A stretch of DNA of 64,000 bases from Nitrospiraceae bacterium (GTDB lineage Bacteria > Nitrospirota > Nitrospiria > Nitrospirales > Nitrospiraceae), in contig JBFWWG010000001.1 in assembly GCA_050246315.1 (NCBI GenBank), positions 544,001 to 608,000 of the forward strand, in the 5' to 3' direction. The notes beneath the pieces were generated by a model. That model saw nothing but the letters and a program-made list of their open reading frames with translations. It was not told where the DNA came from and ran no database searches. Of this stretch, positions 1 through 28,124 are shown piece after piece (the first letter of the stretch is position 1; each line of letters starts with the position of its first letter). Made by a program: the position numbers and the translations under genes.

Positions 1-1926
<1,926 letters not shown>

Positions 1927-6297: not shown

Positions 6298-7509
6298 CTA
6301 GGGTGAATCAAACGTCCCGATGACCGAGAACAGCACGAGGTTCTGTCCGGGGGCCAGGGTGTTGTCGGTTCCCTTGAAGAATCCACCTCCCGATCCGGTT
6401 GACTCATCGTGCCGGTATTCCAGCCGGAAGATCGTATTCGTCCATTTATAGGGAAGGCGATACTGCAGCGTGGTCGTCACGGCTTTGACGAACTGCTCGG
6501 ACCCCGTGATGAGGCCGCTCGCGTCTGAGTAGAATTCGGGTCGGAACGCCACGCTCCACGGACCGGCGATATGCCACCGCATGGTCAGGTCTCCTCCGGT
6601 GAAGACTTCACGCCGATGGCCGGTCACGGAGGCATTTCTTTGGGTTCCCACCTGGTAATCGAGTGCCACGCTCACACGGTCGCTTTTCCATTCGATGATC
6701 GTATCGGAGAACAGCCGCCAGAATTCCAATCCCGTGTCGGCCTGATCGGGTCCGTAATAGAGGGTCTGTTTGATCGTCCAGGAGGAGGCGGGGGTGTACG
6801 TGACCTGGCCTCCATAGCTGGGGAGGCTGTTCGCCTTTGACAGGTGAAAGTATCCGTTGATGATGAAGAATGCGCCGGTCCACCGGTCGTTGAATGGATA
6901 GACCGCGTTGACGCCGAACATAAGATAGGGCGAGTAGTCGGCCATCCACGCCCTGGTGTAGGTAGCATTGTCCTTTGCATACAGCGATTCATAGCCGATG
7001 AAACTGTTGAAGAGCCCTCCTTGTAGCGTGAGGCCATTGCCGACCGGCGCGAGGTAGGAGACGTTCGCACGGCCGAAGTGTCGCCAGACATCGGCGTGCT
7101 GCACTGGCGGCAACCCGACCTCGAACCCGAACGCTTTAGAGTCCTCGCCCGCCTGTACTAATAGTTCGGTTCCCCAGCGAGAGGCAATCGTCGCATCTTT
7201 TTTGACATAGGCGGCCCCCATGTTGATCTCGAGATCATTCACCCGCGGCGTGGTCCCCCGACTCCGCCAGAGGTGATTGCCGGGGAAATTGCTGTCGAGC
7301 CCATAGGCGAAATCGAGGAACCCTCCGTAGTGCCAGAGCGACGTTTCGGGCTTCGGCGCGTCAGATCGCGACTCCGCAGGCGTGCCGGTGTTTGAAGGGA
7401 CGTTCTCCGATGGCCGAGGGAGTGCTTCCTCGGCTGCCGCATGGACCGGACTGATCGAGACACACAACCATGCGATCAGGATGAGCGCCCGAATAAATGT
7501 CCGGCTCAT
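6298..7509 (-). CDS. Outer-membrane beta-barrel porin (bbp2/OmpL-like)
   Basis: Signal peptide, aromatic-rich beta-strands, FNSFIGYES and YTRAWMADYSPY motifs, terminal FDSP; paralog of 7709-8950. Confidence 0.8.
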   Translation of the reverse strand: MSRTFIRALILIAWLCVSISPVHAAAEEALPRPSENVPSNTGTPAESRSDAPKPETSLWHYGGFLDFAYGLDSNFPGNHLWRSRGTTPRVNDLEINMGAAYVKKDATIASRWGTELLVQAGEDSKAFGFEVGLPPVQHADVWRHFGRANVSYLAPVGNGLTLQGGLFNSFIGYESLYAKDNATYTRAWMADYSPYLMFGVNAVYPFNDRWTGAFFIINGYFHLSKANSLPSYGGQVTYTPASSWTIKQTLYYGPDQADTGLEFWRLFSDTIIEWKSDRVSVALDYQVGTQRNASVTGHRREVFTGGDLTMRWHIAGPWSVAFRPEFYSDASGLITGSEQFVKAVTTTLQYRLPYKWTNTIFRLEYRHDESTGSGGGFFKGTDNTLAPGQNLVLFSVIGTFDSP

Positions 7510-7708: not shown

Positions 7709-8950
7709 GTGATCGAGCAAAAAGGCAAGACAGCAGATCTGCCGGTATTCGGCCTCTTCCAAGTCTGGCTGGTTGCGTTGTTCTTGGCAGTGAATAGTCC
7801 TCCTGCCTGTGCGCAAGAGCCTCCGCCGACGCCGGTCATCCCGCCGGAGGTGTCAGGCTCCAAACAAGAGCACGCGACGAGATCGCTCTGGCGCTACGGC
7901 GCCTACCTCGATCTGAGTTATGCGATCGACTTTAATTTCCCCGAGAATCATCTCTGGCGCAGCAAGGTCACGACGCAGCGCGTCAACGAGTTGAACCTCA
8001 ATATGGCGCTCGCTTACGTCAGGAAGGATGCGAACGACGCGTCGCGTTGGGGAATGGAATTGGCGCTCCAGACAGGCAGGGACGTCAAAGGACAAGTCCC
8101 CAATGCCAGTCTTAGGCACGGAGACCCCTATTCCGGTTCCGATACTTTCACCCACTTTTCCCGGGCCAACGTGTCGTATCTGGCGCCGGTCGGCAATGGT
8201 TTGACGGTCACCGCCGGCCTGATGAACAGCTTTATCGGTTACGAGTCGTTTTACGCCAAAGACAACCTGGCCTACACCAGATCGTATCTGGCGGACAACT
8301 CTCCCTATTTCATGTTCGGAATTGCTGCGCAATACCAGTGGAATGATGCGGTCAAGAGCGTGTTCTACGTGATCAATCGATATAACTATCTCTCGTATCC
8401 CAACAATCTTCCGAGTTACGGGACCCAGGTGAGTTGGAAGGTCTTGCCGGACGTCACGTTCACGCAGAACCTCTATTATGGGCCGGACCAATCAAATACC
8501 GACCTCCAGTATTGGCGCTTCTTCTCCGACAGTATCCTGGAGTGGAAACGCGACCAACTTACCCTGGCCTTTGTCTATGATGTCGGGACAGAGAGGGCGA
8601 TCCCTCAGGCCGGCGGCGAACGGACCTTTTGGACCGGGAGCGCGATTCATTCTCAGTGGCGATTCACCAAAGCCTGGGCGATTGCCGTTCGGCCCGAGGT
8701 GTACTACGATCCGGACGGCACCCTCACAGGCGCCAAGCAATTGATCAAGGCAGTCACCACCACACTGGAATACAGGTTGCTCTACGCCTGGACGACGACG
8801 CTGTTTCGTCTTGAGTACCGGTTCGATCATTCCACGGGGTCGCAGGGCGGTTTCTTCACGGGAGGGGAAGTCGCCCCGGGCGTGATCGGACTGACCCCGT
8901 CACAAAATCTGCTGTTCTTCTCGATCCTTTGGAGTTTTGATTCCCGTTAG
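7709..8950 (+). CDS. Outer-membrane beta-barrel porin (bbp2/OmpL-like), second paralog
   Basis: Same motifs as 6298-7509 ([35 protein letters not shown]); terminal WSFDSR. Confidence 0.8.
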
Positions 8951-23433: not shown

Positions 23434-24804
23434 ATGAGCGAATTCCACCGACAGATGAAACAGTACGTGACCGACCACCGATCCCGATTTGAAGACCTGC
23501 TGGGGCGTATGGTGGAAGTGCCGTCCGTCAGCATGGACCCTGAGCGGGTGAAAGATGTCCGCCGGATGGCCGAGCTTGGCGCGCAGATCTTGAAGGAGTG
23601 CGGCGCAGAGGCCCAGGTGATCGAGACCGGAGGCCATCCGCTGGTGTCCGGCGGCTGGACGACCGGCGCCAAACATCCGACGGTCACAATCTATAACCAC
23701 TTGGATGTGCAGCCTGCCCAGGAGCCGGAGTGGAGACAGGACCCCTTTGTGTTTCGAAAAGAGGATGGCGTCTATCACGGCCGGGGGACGACCGATGACA
23801 AGGGGCCGGCGCTCACCGTCCTGTTTGCCGCCAAGTTTGCCGTGGAGCGAGGTCTGCCCATCAACATTCGATTTCTCTGGGAGCTGGAGGAGGAAATCGG
23901 CAGCCCGCATTTCGCCAAGGCGTTGCGCAACCGGGCCGCCATCCCTAAGCCAGATTCCGTTGTAATCTCGGATACGATTTGGATCTCCAATGATCAGCCG
24001 GCTCTCGCCGTCGGGTTACGTGGCCTGCTCGCGGTGCGTTGTTCCTTGGTCACCGGATCGAAGGACGCCCACTCAGGGGTCACAGGCGGGGCGGCACGCA
24101 ACCCACTGGCTGAACTGGTGGAAATGGCCGCCTCTTGCGTGGATGCGAAAACTGGGCGTGTGAAGATTCCAGGATTCTATCGGGATGTCCTGCCGCTGTC
24201 GGCAACAGAGAGGAAGAGTTTTCTCAGATCCGGCTTCGACGTGGATCGCTTCATGAGAGCCTACGGCTTTCAATCGCTCCGCACCAGGAAGGCGGCCGAA
24301 GTCATGGAACGGATCTGGGCCAGACCGACGTTCGAGGTGCACGGCCTCACGGGCGGCTACCAGGGGCCAGGCGTCAAGACCGTGGTGCCCTGGAAGGGTG
24401 AGTTGAAGGCGAGCATGAGGCTGGTGCCGAACCAAACACCCGAGAAGGCGTTTGATCTGTTCAGGCGTCATGTCGCCAAGGTCAATCCCGCCGTCAAGGT
24501 CGAGTGCGACGGCATGCTGCATCCCTTCAAAGGCTGGTCCACGGGACCCTACGTCGAGGCCATTCAAGAAGCGATCCGTGCGGGATTCGGCAAGGCCCCG
24601 GCCCTCACGCGAGAGGGCGGTTCCATCGGCGCGGTAGTCAGTATGGAGCAGGCCTGGAAGGTGCCGATTCTTTTCCTCGGACTCAGCCTCCCGGAACATG
24701 GGTACCATGCGCCGAACGAGCGGTTCGATTGGCGACAGGCCTCCGGCGGCATGAAGGCCTTCGCGGCGTATTTTGCCGAGCTGGCGAAGAGGGGAAGGGA
24801 ATAG
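23434..24804 (+). CDS. M20/M25/M40 family metallopeptidase
   Basis: YNHLDVQP, GRGTTDDKG, EEEIGS, DAHSG, HAPNE; TATAAT box about 40 nt upstream. Confidence 0.93.
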   Translation: MSEFHRQMKQYVTDHRSRFEDLLGRMVEVPSVSMDPERVKDVRRMAELGAQILKECGAEAQVIETGGHPLVSGGWTTGAKHPTVTIYNHLDVQPAQEPEWRQDPFVFRKEDGVYHGRGTTDDKGPALTVLFAAKFAVERGLPINIRFLWELEEEIGSPHFAKALRNRAAIPKPDSVVISDTIWISNDQPALAVGLRGLLAVRCSLVTGSKDAHSGVTGGAARNPLAELVEMAASCVDAKTGRVKIPGFYRDVLPLSATERKSFLRSGFDVDRFMRAYGFQSLRTRKAAEVMERIWARPTFEVHGLTGGYQGPGVKTVVPWKGELKASMRLVPNQTPEKAFDLFRRHVAKVNPAVKVECDGMLHPFKGWSTGPYVEAIQEAIRAGFGKAPALTREGGSIGAVVSMEQAWKVPILFLGLSLPEHGYHAPNERFDWRQASGGMKAFAAYFAELAKRGRE

Positions 24805-24860
24805 GGCAGACTGGTTAATTTTCCCGGGGTGCCTGTTGCTCCACCCAATGCCACTGGTCG

Positions 24861-25003
24861 TTCATTCATTCATTCATTCACGTCATTCATTCACAGGGTC
24901 ATTGCTTGACTTGACACTGCTGCATCGCTTGCCTGCGTAGCGCGCATTCATTCACGGGGTCATTGCTTGACTTGACACTGCTGCATCGCTTGCCTGCGCA
25001 GCG
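24861..25003. repeat. TCAT micro-repeats plus a 61-bp-period tandem duplication of the element end
   Basis: 24884-24942 repeated at 24945-25003 with 2 mismatches; (TTCA)n run at 24861-24894. Confidence 0.9.
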
Positions 25004-25901
25004 GGCTGGGGACCGTACACTCGGCCGCACGCTGAATCTTCGAAATGCGCGACGGCGAAACACCGAATCGTTTCGCCACCCGGGCAAGCGGCTCGTTGGC
25101 CGCTCGGCGTAACAGCCACGCCGCGGAACAATAGGCTTCTGCGTGGCCGCGGCTCAGGAGCGCCCGCACGGTGAGTCCATAGATCGCCGCCACGCGCGCC
25201 ACCACCTCTTCCGGCCGCAGGCGCGTCGGCCGGGTTTGCGCGGCAGGTACATTGCCCACACGCTGTCCTTGGATCAGCGCTTCCATGCGCGTCAGAAAGG
25301 CCGCGCGTCCCAAGAAGATTTGGCCTCTCACCTGTGCCCACGGCGACGCGTGTCCGATCCCGGCGTGCACAAACCGCCGGTAGGCACGCTGGGCCGCAGT
25401 CGGCCTCGGATCAAACAAGGTGAGGACACCGGCCACGTCGAGCCAGGTCGGCGTCGGTTCGTCACCCGCAGTGGCCCGATAGCTACTCCATCGCCAGTCT
25501 GCCGCCGTCTCCACCACGGCGGCACGGACCGGATTTAACACCAGATACCGACAGAGCTCCAGGAGATAACTCTCCTTCTCGACGAGAATACTCTTAAACC
25601 GGCCTTGCAGTACGTGCCCGACTCGCCCGTGCCGCCGATTAAAGCGTTGGGTATAGGTGGCGTTCAGGCGGCGCATCCCCCGACTGAGGTTCGCCTCCGG
25701 GGTTTCCACGAGCAGATGGTAGTGATTGTCCATCAAGCAATAGGCGTAGCAGCGCCATCGTTGCTGACGGGTCTCCTGGCCGAGCAAGTCCAGAAACCGC
25801 TGGCGATCGGCGTCATCCTGAAAGATCGGCTGGCGCGCATTGCCGCGAGCGGTGACATGGTACAGGGCGCCTTCAAACTCCAAGCGAAGCTGGCGAGCCA
25901 T
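24960..25901 (-). CDS. Y1 HUH transposase (IS200-like / RAYT) with C-terminal HTH (DnaA-C-like)
   Basis: MARQLR, YHVTARGNAR, YCLMDNHYHLL (HUH), QGRFKS, RYLVLNPVRA (catalytic Tyr), WSSY. Confidence 0.9.
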   Translation of the reverse strand: MARQLRLEFEGALYHVTARGNARQPIFQDDADRQRFLDLLGQETRQQRWRCYAYCLMDNHYHLLVETPEANLSRGMRRLNATYTQRFNRRHGRVGHVLQGRFKSILVEKESYLLELCRYLVLNPVRAAVVETAADWRWSSYRATAGDEPTPTWLDVAGVLTLFDPRPTAAQRAYRRFVHAGIGHASPWAQVRGQIFLGRAAFLTRMEALIQGQRVGNVPAAQTRPTRLRPEEVVARVAAIYGLTVRALLSRGHAEAYCSAAWLLRRAANEPLARVAKRFGVSPSRISKIQRAAECTVPSPLRRQAMQQCQVKQ

Positions 25902-25909
25902 GGCGGCGG

Positions 25910-25938
25910 AGCGTAGCGAGGGGGAAGTGTAAAGTCAA
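25910..25938 (-). promoter_or_regulatory. Sigma70-type promoter with its -35 box inside the upstream TIR
   Basis: TTGACT-N17-TACGCT, 8 nt before the ATG; no SD sequence. Confidence 0.6.
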
Positions 25939-25941
25939 GCA

Positions 25942-25988
25942 ATGACCCCATCAAATGACCCCATGACCCCATCAAATGACCCCATCAA
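25942..25988. repeat. Four reiterated ATGACCCC(ATCAA) junction units
   Basis: ATGACCCC at 25942, 25955, 25963 and 25976. Confidence 0.9.
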
Positions 25989-26610
25989 AGCAATGGGGGC
26001 GACCGAATCCCAGCTTCATGCGCCAATTTGTAGACCCATGTAGCTTATGGATAACGGTTGCCGACTGGCTATTGTTGGGCCAGAAAGGCTCTCCGATGCA
26101 CTGCGCTGAAGGCGGAATATAGAAACCATATCCACTATTCGGATGCCAATAGATTGCAGGTGCTGGCGTGATGGATTTTGATACCTCGTGCAGTTTCTGA
26201 TCGAGAACATCATCGTAATTAAATGTCAGGCAGGTCGCACGATTAACCAAGCAGTAGTATGCGAAGTTCCGCAGTTCGTCCTCATGTGTGAATCCGCTTT
26301 CCTTGGCGTTTTTCAGTCGTTTTAAAAAACTCTCATGTAATTCCCGCCTTACCGACTCAAAGTGAATGGAGGTTGCCTCTGAGTCAAAAGGCATTCCTTC
26401 AAGGCGTGTCAGCAAGCGTTCAATATCAACATTGCCATCAGGTAGTCGGTCTCTTTCTCGTTCAAGAATATCTGCAATTCTTTGAACCTCCTTGTACTTT
26501 CTTATGACAGGGTTAATGTCATAACTGTCGACGAGGAGTGGTGCATGTGGCAAGAAAGCCTTTGTAAACCCAGCGCCAAGCACAAACACCTGTCTTTGTT
26601 TTTGGTCCAT
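25972..26610 (-). pseudogene. SIR2-like (SIR2_2) protein, 3'-truncated at the element junction
   Basis: VFVLGAGF, LTFNYDDVLD, HKLHGSTNW; stop codon lies inside the junction repeats; visibly AT-richer than flanks. Confidence 0.7.
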
Positions 26611-26828
26611 GTGACTAACCCTTATGAAGCGCCCTGTGTTGGCGACCTTGGGGCCATAATGAGGCAGCCTCTAGAGAAGGAAGCCTCTTGACGGTGGACT
26701 GTAACGAGCCAATCCCCATCCGAACATACCTTGTCCCGCATGGCCTGGAAACTCCGAGGGAGCACTGTATGCGCCATTGTTAGGTACAACTATCAATCAC
26801 TGAGCTTTTGAGTTGTAGTCTGTCCTCT

Positions 26829-27053
26829 TTATGTGTCCTTGTTGCGCTCGCCCAGTAATTCCTGAGTGACGGAAGCTCTGCTCCTCAGCATCCCGCACAG
26901 GCTGCGGATGTATGCCTTTGTAATCGGTTGGAAGATGATCTCGTTGCCTCGCTCCACGAAACAAACCTTGGTCCCAGGCTTGATGCCGAATCGATGGCGA
27001 ATGCGAGCTGGAATCACGAGCCGCCCTTTGGTTGTCACGTAGGCGGTTTCCAT
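26829..27053 (-). CDS. AbrB/MazE/SpoVT-family DNA-binding protein (antitoxin-like)
   Basis: VTTKGRLVIPARIRHRFGIKPGTKV; GGAGG RBS. Confidence 0.85.
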   Translation of the reverse strand: METAYVTTKGRLVIPARIRHRFGIKPGTKVCFVERGNEIIFQPITKAYIRSLCGMLRSRASVTQELLGERNKDT

Positions 27054-27105
27054 ACAGTCCCTCCACGATGTCGCAAGAGAAGCAGACCGAGCACTCCACC
27101 TGGCA

Positions 27106-28124
27106 CTATTGCGTCGGGCTCAGTGGGGCGAGCAGCAAGGAACTCAATGGACTGGCAAGCAGCGGCGTGAGCATCAAGCCGAACTGGGGAAAATGATCCT
27201 GTAACGAGAGGAAGAGGCCATGGTCTTTCAGCCACTCGTCCTGTTCTACCAAGGGCAGTTTCTCGGGGGCCGTCTGCAAGAAGCGCTGAGCCCGCCGCGC
27301 CAGCAGGACGGCGGCAGGCAAATAGGTCGCTACCGGCACGAGGGTAACGGTGACGCCCCAGTACAGAGTGATGGCCAGCGCCGCGCCCAGCACGGCTTCG
27401 TGCGCATGCTTGTCGCCGACCAACGCCGCCAGGCGCCCATATGCAAGACCCCGGCTACGAGGATGGCCGATCCCGCGCTCAACACCTCTTTCAACCGGCG
27501 CATCTGCACGGCACAGTGCTCCTGATCCGCCGGCCGGCCGGAGACCGGCGGCGCCAGGGTGCTACAGGCTGCGAGCAGCGCCACCACCGGAACAACGATG
27601 GCCTGCACGTTCACGACGGAAACCACCGTCATGGTATAGCGCAAGAGGCCTTCGCTGATTCGCTGAGACCCGGCATGTCGTAAATTATCGTAGGTGAAGC
27701 CAAAGACAGCTCGGTAGAGCGCGTGGCTGTTATCAAGCCACCAGAGAAACAGCAATCCGATCGCGGACAACACCAGACCCACCGTCGAAACGACCATCAG
27801 CCGCCGCATGGGATGAGATTGATAGATCAGCGTGGCGCACATCATCGCGGCGTACGCTCCGGCCACCAATGCCACCACGACCGTGGTGAGCCAAACGTAC
27901 CGCGCTTTGACTTCAACAAGAAAATGCGTCGCGTGAAACTCTCGGGACGGAGACTTCGAGGCAGGCTGCATCAGGCCCTTCGTGAGGTCGAGAAAATTAT
28001 CCACCGTGATGTTGGCGCTGAACTCAAACAGCTCGACGGCCAGCAGGAGGATCGCAATTGGGGGCACCGTCAGCATCAAGAATCGATAGTCCGAGAGTGA
28101 AGGGGCGGCCGGCTGTGTCATCAC
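27106..28124 (-). pseudogene. Multi-TM hypothetical membrane protein with apparent frameshift near 27425-27435
   Basis: Hydrophobic ORF 27330-28124 becomes implausible after LHMGAW while the overlapping frame 27106-27423 continues with TM-like sequence. Confidence 0.55.

Follow-up and report, generated by a model that had tools for sequence, protein, structure and literature searches.

What is a gene for an HUH (Y1) transposase that is bounded on both sides by terminal inverted repeats (TIRs), and does the whole move? IS200/IS605 elements have unlike left and right hairpin ends and a guide-selected target, and often carry TnpB; TIRs are typical of DDE elements. The question is posed by a stretch of 64,000 nt, here the window, from a Nitrospiraceae bacterium (GCA_050246315.1, JBFWWG010000001.1, forward-strand positions 544,001-608,000). 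Its positions 24956-25949 are an intact TIRtron, a unit of about 1 kb with an HUH/Y1 nuclease gene between 24-bp inverted ends. The initial annotation had proposed a distinct class of HUH element, and distinct from IS200/IS605 and from REP-flanked RAYTs it is, but the class itself is not new: in 2013 Di Nocera, De Gregorio and Rocco had already named RAYT-like genes with flanking TIRs TIRYTs, and the units TIRtrons (PMC3733652). The parts of the element are as follows.

24956..24979, plus strand: TIR at the 3′ end of the gene, 24 bp, positions 5-7 of which are the minus-strand TGA stop
24960..25901, minus strand: TIRYT gene, 313 aa, HUH with catalytic Y119 and a predicted DnaA domain IV-like C-terminus
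25910..25915, minus strand: -10 hexamer TACGCT, 17 nt from the -35, with the ATG 8 nt later
25926..25949, minus strand: TIR at the promoter end, 24 bp, with the -35 hexamer inside it at 25938-25933

The arms match in inverted orientation at 23/24 positions, the mismatch being TIR position 19, and the 313-aa ORF lies between them, just as a 23/24-bp TIR tightly bounding a RAYT/IS200-like gene had been described; the length of 24 is taken from own-pair identity across homologs. In a chance control with 3000 random window pairs the ungapped score of 21 was reached by nine, every one of them from a single degenerate 39-bp inverted match elsewhere in the window (7034-7072 and 8161-8199, about 1.1 kb apart). 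The sequence also bears out that one TIR gives the stop codon and the other holds the -35 box of a 17-bp-spaced promoter: TTGACT is followed after 17 nt by TACGCT at 25915-25910. A scan for consensus promoters and terminators called none at the element, the promoter being missed because its -10 fits the consensus at only 3/6. No ribosome-binding site lies 5′ of the TIRYT gene, so that its transcript is likely leaderless. There is no TnpB gene in or beside the element, where the Y1 gene is the sole gene between the TIRs, and the hairpin potential of the TIR ends is not significant (z -0.83 to +1.25). Gene content, these values and comparison of the edges thus agree with the earlier reading that TnpB, a target duplication and REP palindromes are all absent. 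The locus is present in contigs from all four of the DNA runs inspected, which may include the source sample. Coverage of the gene by the RNA runs X15 and X16 was set aside as a sign of expression, as X16 has a 17-kb contig there and DNA is likely present.

The TIRYT protein matches Pfam Y1_Tnp (E=1.6e-11) and NCBIfam REP_Tyr_transpos (NF047646; 86.9 bits against a cut-off of 80). H60, Y61, H62, Y119, N123 and P124 are invariant in 42/42 aligned proteins; the alignment keeps Y119-x3-N123-P124, the Y---NP context, and W138-S139, the serine motif after the core, without change. In the AlphaFold model (pLDDT 94) residues 1-188 superimpose on TnpA-REP 4ER8 with Z 15.8 and rmsd 2.4 over 154 aligned residues, fold matches to the Y1 structures of IS200/IS605 have Z 8-10, and a PDB sequence search with alignment likewise puts 4ER8 on top (E=0.014). 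Residues 228-311 of the same model match DnaA domain IV (Z 13.0 and 12.9, rmsd 2.1, 84 aligned), which is the fold predicted for this C-terminal region. HTH profile models match the protein only below their cut-offs, the Pfam HTH matches being weak, and the Bac_DnaA_C profile has no match in it. The HTH window 271-290 is the best tracker of the promoter-end TIR among 28 windows (partial rho 0.40, 94 elements), the best window before residue 200 reaches rho 0.20, and within 80 short proteins the value is 0.38, all on related, non-independent sequences that overstate the strength of the co-variation. The proposal in the initial annotation that the HTH binds the TIR has thereby gained indirect support from predicted fold and co-variation, which is support, not proof, that the C-terminal HTH reads the TIR.

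Among 80 related loci, 65 had enough flank for the homolog flanks to be searched for inverted repeats, as had been suggested, with an own TIR pair counted at a score of at least 14. Such a pair is present in 55/65, spread over many phyla, as against 0/65 for direct orientation and 0/65 for shuffled sequence; cross-locus pairs reach the score in 13.5%. Within an element the two ends are alike above background up to position 24 and not further. For the promoter, 79 metagenome loci were added, giving 141 with a start codon and 150 nt upstream; the core TIR motif is upstream in 133/141 and lies 42-50 nt from the ATG in 79. TAnnnT stands at the -10 position in 64/79 promoter ends as against 2/62 opposite ends, and a ribosome-binding motif is present in 2/79 loci with a close TIR as against 17/30 where the TIR is farther off. 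A promoter for a likely leaderless transcript is thus conserved family-wide. The TGA of TGACCC serves as the stop of the gene in 38/104 homologs. In the outer motif position 8 is T in the window TIR and G in 83% of homolog ends.

A target duplication of at least 4 nt at the TIR edge was found in 0/73 cases. When the search was widened to 40 nt, duplications of up to 7 nt showed no excess over cross pairs, and those of at least 8 nt (4/95 against 1.1% of cross pairs) were not accepted, two of them being T-rich. For seven elements of G000 that were compared, no match was longer than 8 nt, and that one was distant from the ends. These data bear on the alternative that an unrelated DDE insertion sequence took up the gene and contributed the TIRs, a possibility that the initial annotation had itself singled out. 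The TIRs are indeed as in DDE elements, but that they accompany the HUH gene across so many phyla, supply its stop codon, sit at a fixed distance from its promoter, enclose no second gene and show the same duplications at both ends leaves such a capture barely credible. Identity as a DDE insertion sequence was rejected on the same grounds, the sole gene inside being Y1 and the edges lacking duplications.

Whether the unit moves is best approached through its copies. The window element is single-copy in the genome G000, and its own TIR core occurs nowhere else there. G000 also has eight further loci of the same protein family, three of them intact and each with an upstream GGGTCA-type end; a loose TIR-end pattern matches 53 times genome-wide and 10 times in the reversed control, and an unrelated family of structured repeats has 86 copies. 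Among genomes of the bacterial family, 74/201 have a match, the closest being G002 (98%), G131 (97%) and G070 (83%). G131 is a closed genome of another genus in which the gene is 96.9% identical (codon differences: 17 synonymous, 11 non-synonymous) and the neighbours are unrelated; the M20 peptidase gene of G131 is only 71% identical to the M20 gene that stands beside the element in the window. The closed genome G001, of the same genus as the window, has the M20 site without the element and no copy of the window TIR. It does have a paralogous TIRtron in two copies, which lie 2.25 Mb from each other and are 98.6% identical as far as the TIRs and no further. Gene-less derivatives with the window TIR are present in G005 (about 160 and 95 bp) and also in G002, and in run X16 positions 24954-25954 form a single piece that branches to two different left flanks. 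On these comparisons the TIRtron is likely still mobile.

The search for non-autonomous copies and empty sites that had been suggested yielded the gene-less derivatives and no clean empty site. No filled and empty pair with both flanks contiguous was present among the 26 loci examined; at the M20 site G001 and G005 carry other cargo, and four paralog sites had no clean empty counterpart either. Circle or excision joints were sought in 7 distinct runs, all of them as contigs, a form that drops rare variants, and none was seen. This lack of any clean insertion suits a rather doubtful but substantial alternative, in which the enzyme is that of a semi-domesticated RAYT that mainly edits the DNA beside the ends, by local duplication, deletion or exchange of flanks, whole elements being spread passively when larger segments are transferred horizontally and recombine. 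The element being single-copy in G000 suits it as well, as do the many solo ends that stay put in G000 and G002 while their flanks change, and the figure of 6.3% recent duplicates for Group 1 RAYTs given in the text of PMC5581495. It accounts poorly for distant copies (those of G131 and G002 and the pair in G001) whose identity breaks off just a few bases from the TIRs, and for the X16 unit with its two left flanks. The window element, real and intact, belongs to the known class and is probably mobile.

Other loci give a picture of how variable the surroundings of such elements are. A paralogous TIRtron in G000 (C4:301839-302857) has a different promoter-end TIR and promoter from its counterpart in G002, where 2.7 kb of small genes lie beside the altered promoter end, an end swap with cargo. 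At another site on C4 of G000 there is one TIRtron, and the same site in G002 (contig C28) has a short gene-less tandem element that carries the window's TIR type. In G001 (C1:3240572-3243398) two TIRtron copies with the same end scars lie 1,815 bp apart. Four solo ends of another TIR type follow holB in G000 (C8:81150-82600), with the same five outer bases but different distal flanks, and the 3′ end of holB is repeated there. In G002 a holB left flank is joined to the right flank of the window locus; this was left out of the count of rearrangements, as a two-copy repeat may have been misassembled there, the M20 gene of G002 being missing and run X16 showing both left flanks.

The edges of the window element itself had been incompletely described, end-anchored duplications on both sides and a cut-off SIR2-like gene having been missed. 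They, and the neighbouring genes, are listed here.

23434..24804, plus strand: M20 peptidase gene, the chromosomal anchor of a variable site and not part of the element
24863..24883, plus strand: (CATT)4 tract and a degenerate CATTCAC unit, read in the sequence
24884..24944, plus strand: tandem copy of the left end (95%), with 11 nt of outer flank and the first 50 nt of the element, starting CA
25950..25983, plus strand: three extra TGACCCC copies outside the promoter-end TIR, in units of 13, 8 and 13 nt
25972..26610, minus strand: SIR2-like gene, 212 aa, cut off at the promoter end of the element

The left-end tandem duplication has a 61-bp unit and spans 24884-25005; the doubled depth of the piece 24957-24998, listed in 3 of the 4 DNA runs, means that it is not an assembly artefact. 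The repeats at 24863-24883 are probably older reiterations of the same left end. On the other side the extra TGACCCC heptamers span 25956-25983, variants of this array are seen in runs X12 and X16, and its repeat units begin with T, not C.

The window from 24805 to 27330, after the M20 gene, is a variable slot. G001 has part of the M20 3′ end there once more, together with a 243-aa gene of unknown kind, and G005 has a type II restriction-modification pair, a partial M20 3′-end repeat and a TGACCCC-type end. Beyond it, at 27330-28124 on the minus strand, is a membrane-protein gene that looks frameshifted or truncated (264 aa as against 361 aa for its G001 counterpart); in G002 it is cut at window position 27566, about 70 nt from the element's end. 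The SIR2-like gene, whose PADLOC match is weak (E=0.00095), has 23 residues from its LHGS motif to the stop as against a homolog median of 163. Its homologs have about 350 aa in place of 212, and the remainder was not found in G000.

Are such duplications a property of the family? Perfect tandem duplications overlap 22/132 TIR ends and just 9/2087 other GGGTCA sites. A TIR filter kept 45 of 79 distinct duplication units, and in 27 of the 45 the joint is unambiguous. Among the 27, 22 begin with C (21 with CA or CG), as against 47/208 for C among other outer bases; the inner boundary is TIR position 7 in 18 and one of positions 6-8 in 24; and the outer reach is 5-13 nt beyond the TIR in 26. The 34 units that failed the filter, which include compound arrays and chance 7-mers, start with C in 6/16 unambiguous cases only. 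In longer units (61 bp in the window, 659 bp in G001) the outer boundary stays close and the inner one varies. End reiteration is extreme at one homolog locus, L015, where end units of 13-18 nt form long arrays on either side. Replication slippage at the G-run, unrelated to the enzyme, would be in keeping with the microhomology at some joints, 18/45 TIR-like units being ambiguous; but 27/45 are without it, other GGGTCA sites are so rarely duplicated and the boundaries are so position-specific that slippage is a very improbable source of the scars.

The flanks just outside the ends also change. When 16 motif ends were mapped uniquely between G002 and G000 through the 120 nt on their inner side, 11/16 differed in the 60 nt on the outer side, as against 3/234 control positions; the five unchanged ends look like chance matches to the loose pattern. 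In a further comparison 34/76 ends were mapped to G000, and 12 cases show the flank without the end. In all 12 the joint lies outside the TIR, and none continues with GGGTCA. With scar copies discounted (six matches of at least 85% identity) the joints lie 0-14 nt outside, and TGACCCC, with which the TIR had been said to end, is probably not the exact terminus. On this pattern turnover just outside the ends likely marks where the enzyme cuts.

The reading to which we lean, with somewhat better than even confidence, is of a mobile TIRtron whose C-terminal HTH docks on the inner TIR while the HUH domain nicks and rejoins the outer edge; this cutting and movement is what we infer from the TIR pair, the gene and its motifs, the promoter layout, the copies elsewhere, the flank turnover and the scars that are seen. 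The DnaA-IV-like domain would bind duplex DNA at TIR positions 8-24, and its binding at the promoter end would cover the -35 box and repress the protein's own leaderless transcript. The strand that reads GGGGTCA would be nicked 5′ of a C(A/G) that lies 5-13 nt beyond the TIR. A further nick would be made at TIR position 7/8; the simplest placing is on the opposite strand, immediately ahead of TGACCCC. Fill-in and HUH religation in place would then give the tandem scars; for TnpA-REP, the legend to Fig. 7B of PMC3333891 proposes that tandem units form by nicking, extension and rejoining. Transfer of an end to a new site would carry along a short tail of the old flank and leave no target duplication, and one-ended events would delete or swap adjacent DNA, of which the truncated SIR2-like gene may be an example. 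If the nicks are on opposite strands, a single rule of cutting before a pyrimidine-purine step would serve for both, a rule unlike the one measured for RAYTs, whose cuts fall at C|T and C|A (PMC8266576). The scars alone fit equally well with two cuts on one strand, or with a nick and a polymerase block at the bound protein.

Cutting on the same strand is what IS608-like targeting would involve: a cut 3′ of GGGGTCA, with the heptamer derived from the target and ends joining at cryptic GGGGTCA sites. That position 7 is the commonest inner boundary (18/27) would suit this, and so would the SIR2-like gene, whose truncation falls on conserved D-(A/G)-(I/V)-(V/I) codons that can read GGGGTCATT. It is nonetheless unlikely, with 0/12 of the G000 flank-only cases continuing with GGGTCA and the joint being outside the TIR, by 0-14 nt in the six matches of at least 85% identity once scar copies are discounted. 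The final codons of the SIR2-like gene, D-G-V-I, suit the family consensus and also spell GGGGTCATT; because the gene's own codons could do so, the joint may have arisen at a cryptic site, or may be a microhomology deletion instead of an enzyme cut.

To return to the mobile TIRtron with an anchored HTH, it can tentatively be taken one step further, to a third mode of HUH transposition. In it DnaA-domain-IV anchoring on duplex ends would be followed by staggered nicks 5′ of pyrimidine-purine steps, with phosphotyrosine on the 5′ ends of the element, and each end would take a little of its old flank along when it moves, the target not being duplicated. If that is true, the process would be the polarity mirror of DDE replicative transposition, and every solo end would be a one-sided engine that duplicates, deletes or swaps adjacent DNA.

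Of value here is a set of testable predictions for the class, with binding at TIR positions 8-24 and nicks at 7/8 and at C(A/G) 5-13 nt outside. An intact copy, a near-identical sister in another genus and fresh variation at the ends make the window element a good substrate. If the predictions are true, the substrate of an HUH enzyme is here a pair of duplex inverted ends, in contrast to IS608 and REP systems, and solo ends give rise to local rearrangements in the genomes that carry them. A literature search, with most subscription papers beyond its reach, found no experimental study of the TIRtron class.

Like the TIRtrons and TIRYTs as published, the element has a RAYT-like tyrosine transposase gene and TIRs instead of REPs, an outer motif close to GGGGWSAS, an overlap of TIR and gene ends, which is possible in that class, and dispersed TIR copies. 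The published motif, GGGGWSAS, is held by most TIRs, not all, and the overlap with gene ends is stated in the 2013 figure legends (PMC3733652); the window TIR GGGGTCAT agrees with GGGGWSAS at 7/8. The proposed mechanism, the promoter, the end duplications and the evidence for cross-genus movement are additions to what is in the passages of that paper. In the text of Quentin et al. 2018 (PMC6006769) 20/26 TIRYT examples fall in TnpA-Y1 subclass 2.1, all 20 with a C-terminal HTH or DnaA-like domain, and that subclass is equated with RAYT Group 1 of Bertels et al. 2017, the largest RAYT group as described there (PMC5581495). The present protein resembles subclass 2.1 (2.1.2), as described in PMC6006769 and on protein features, in being a long class-2 protein with Y---NP, a serine motif after the core and a predicted C-terminal Bac_DnaA_C-like or HTH domain, and its family has no REPs and a patchy, wide distribution. 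The subclass 2.1 authors, in the passages concerned, doubted that the domain reads the TIR or thought of retargeting, suggesting that the DnaA-like domain targets replication forks and pointing out that the TIR is unlike a DnaA box (PMC6006769); the co-variation found here favours TIR recognition.

With IS200/IS605 (IS608, ISDra2) the element shares the Y1 HUH chemistry and the lack of a target duplication. Membership there was rejected, the ends being inverted copies and not unlike hairpins, and the protein having 313 aa with Y---NP, not a short form with Y---Q. The REPtrons with TnpA-REP, of E. coli, Stenotrophomonas and Marinomonas, are closer in the HUH core fold (the Z of 15.8 to 4ER8), in a dinucleotide cut at a distance from the bound repeat, which here would be a prediction, and in tandem amplification of end units. 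A REPtron of RAYT groups 2 and 3 was also rejected as an identity for the element, with no GTAG-tagged hairpin REPs, no significant fold and the 4-bp stem of the window TIR complete in only 25/237 ends. In PMC3333891 and PMC8266576 REPs are described as GTAG-tagged single-strand hairpins, with cuts at C|T or C|A, and the REPtron as a unit is reported not to transpose. In contrast to them the TIRtron has no hairpin ends, its protein has an additional, putative DNA-binding domain, and movement seems to involve the unit as a whole.
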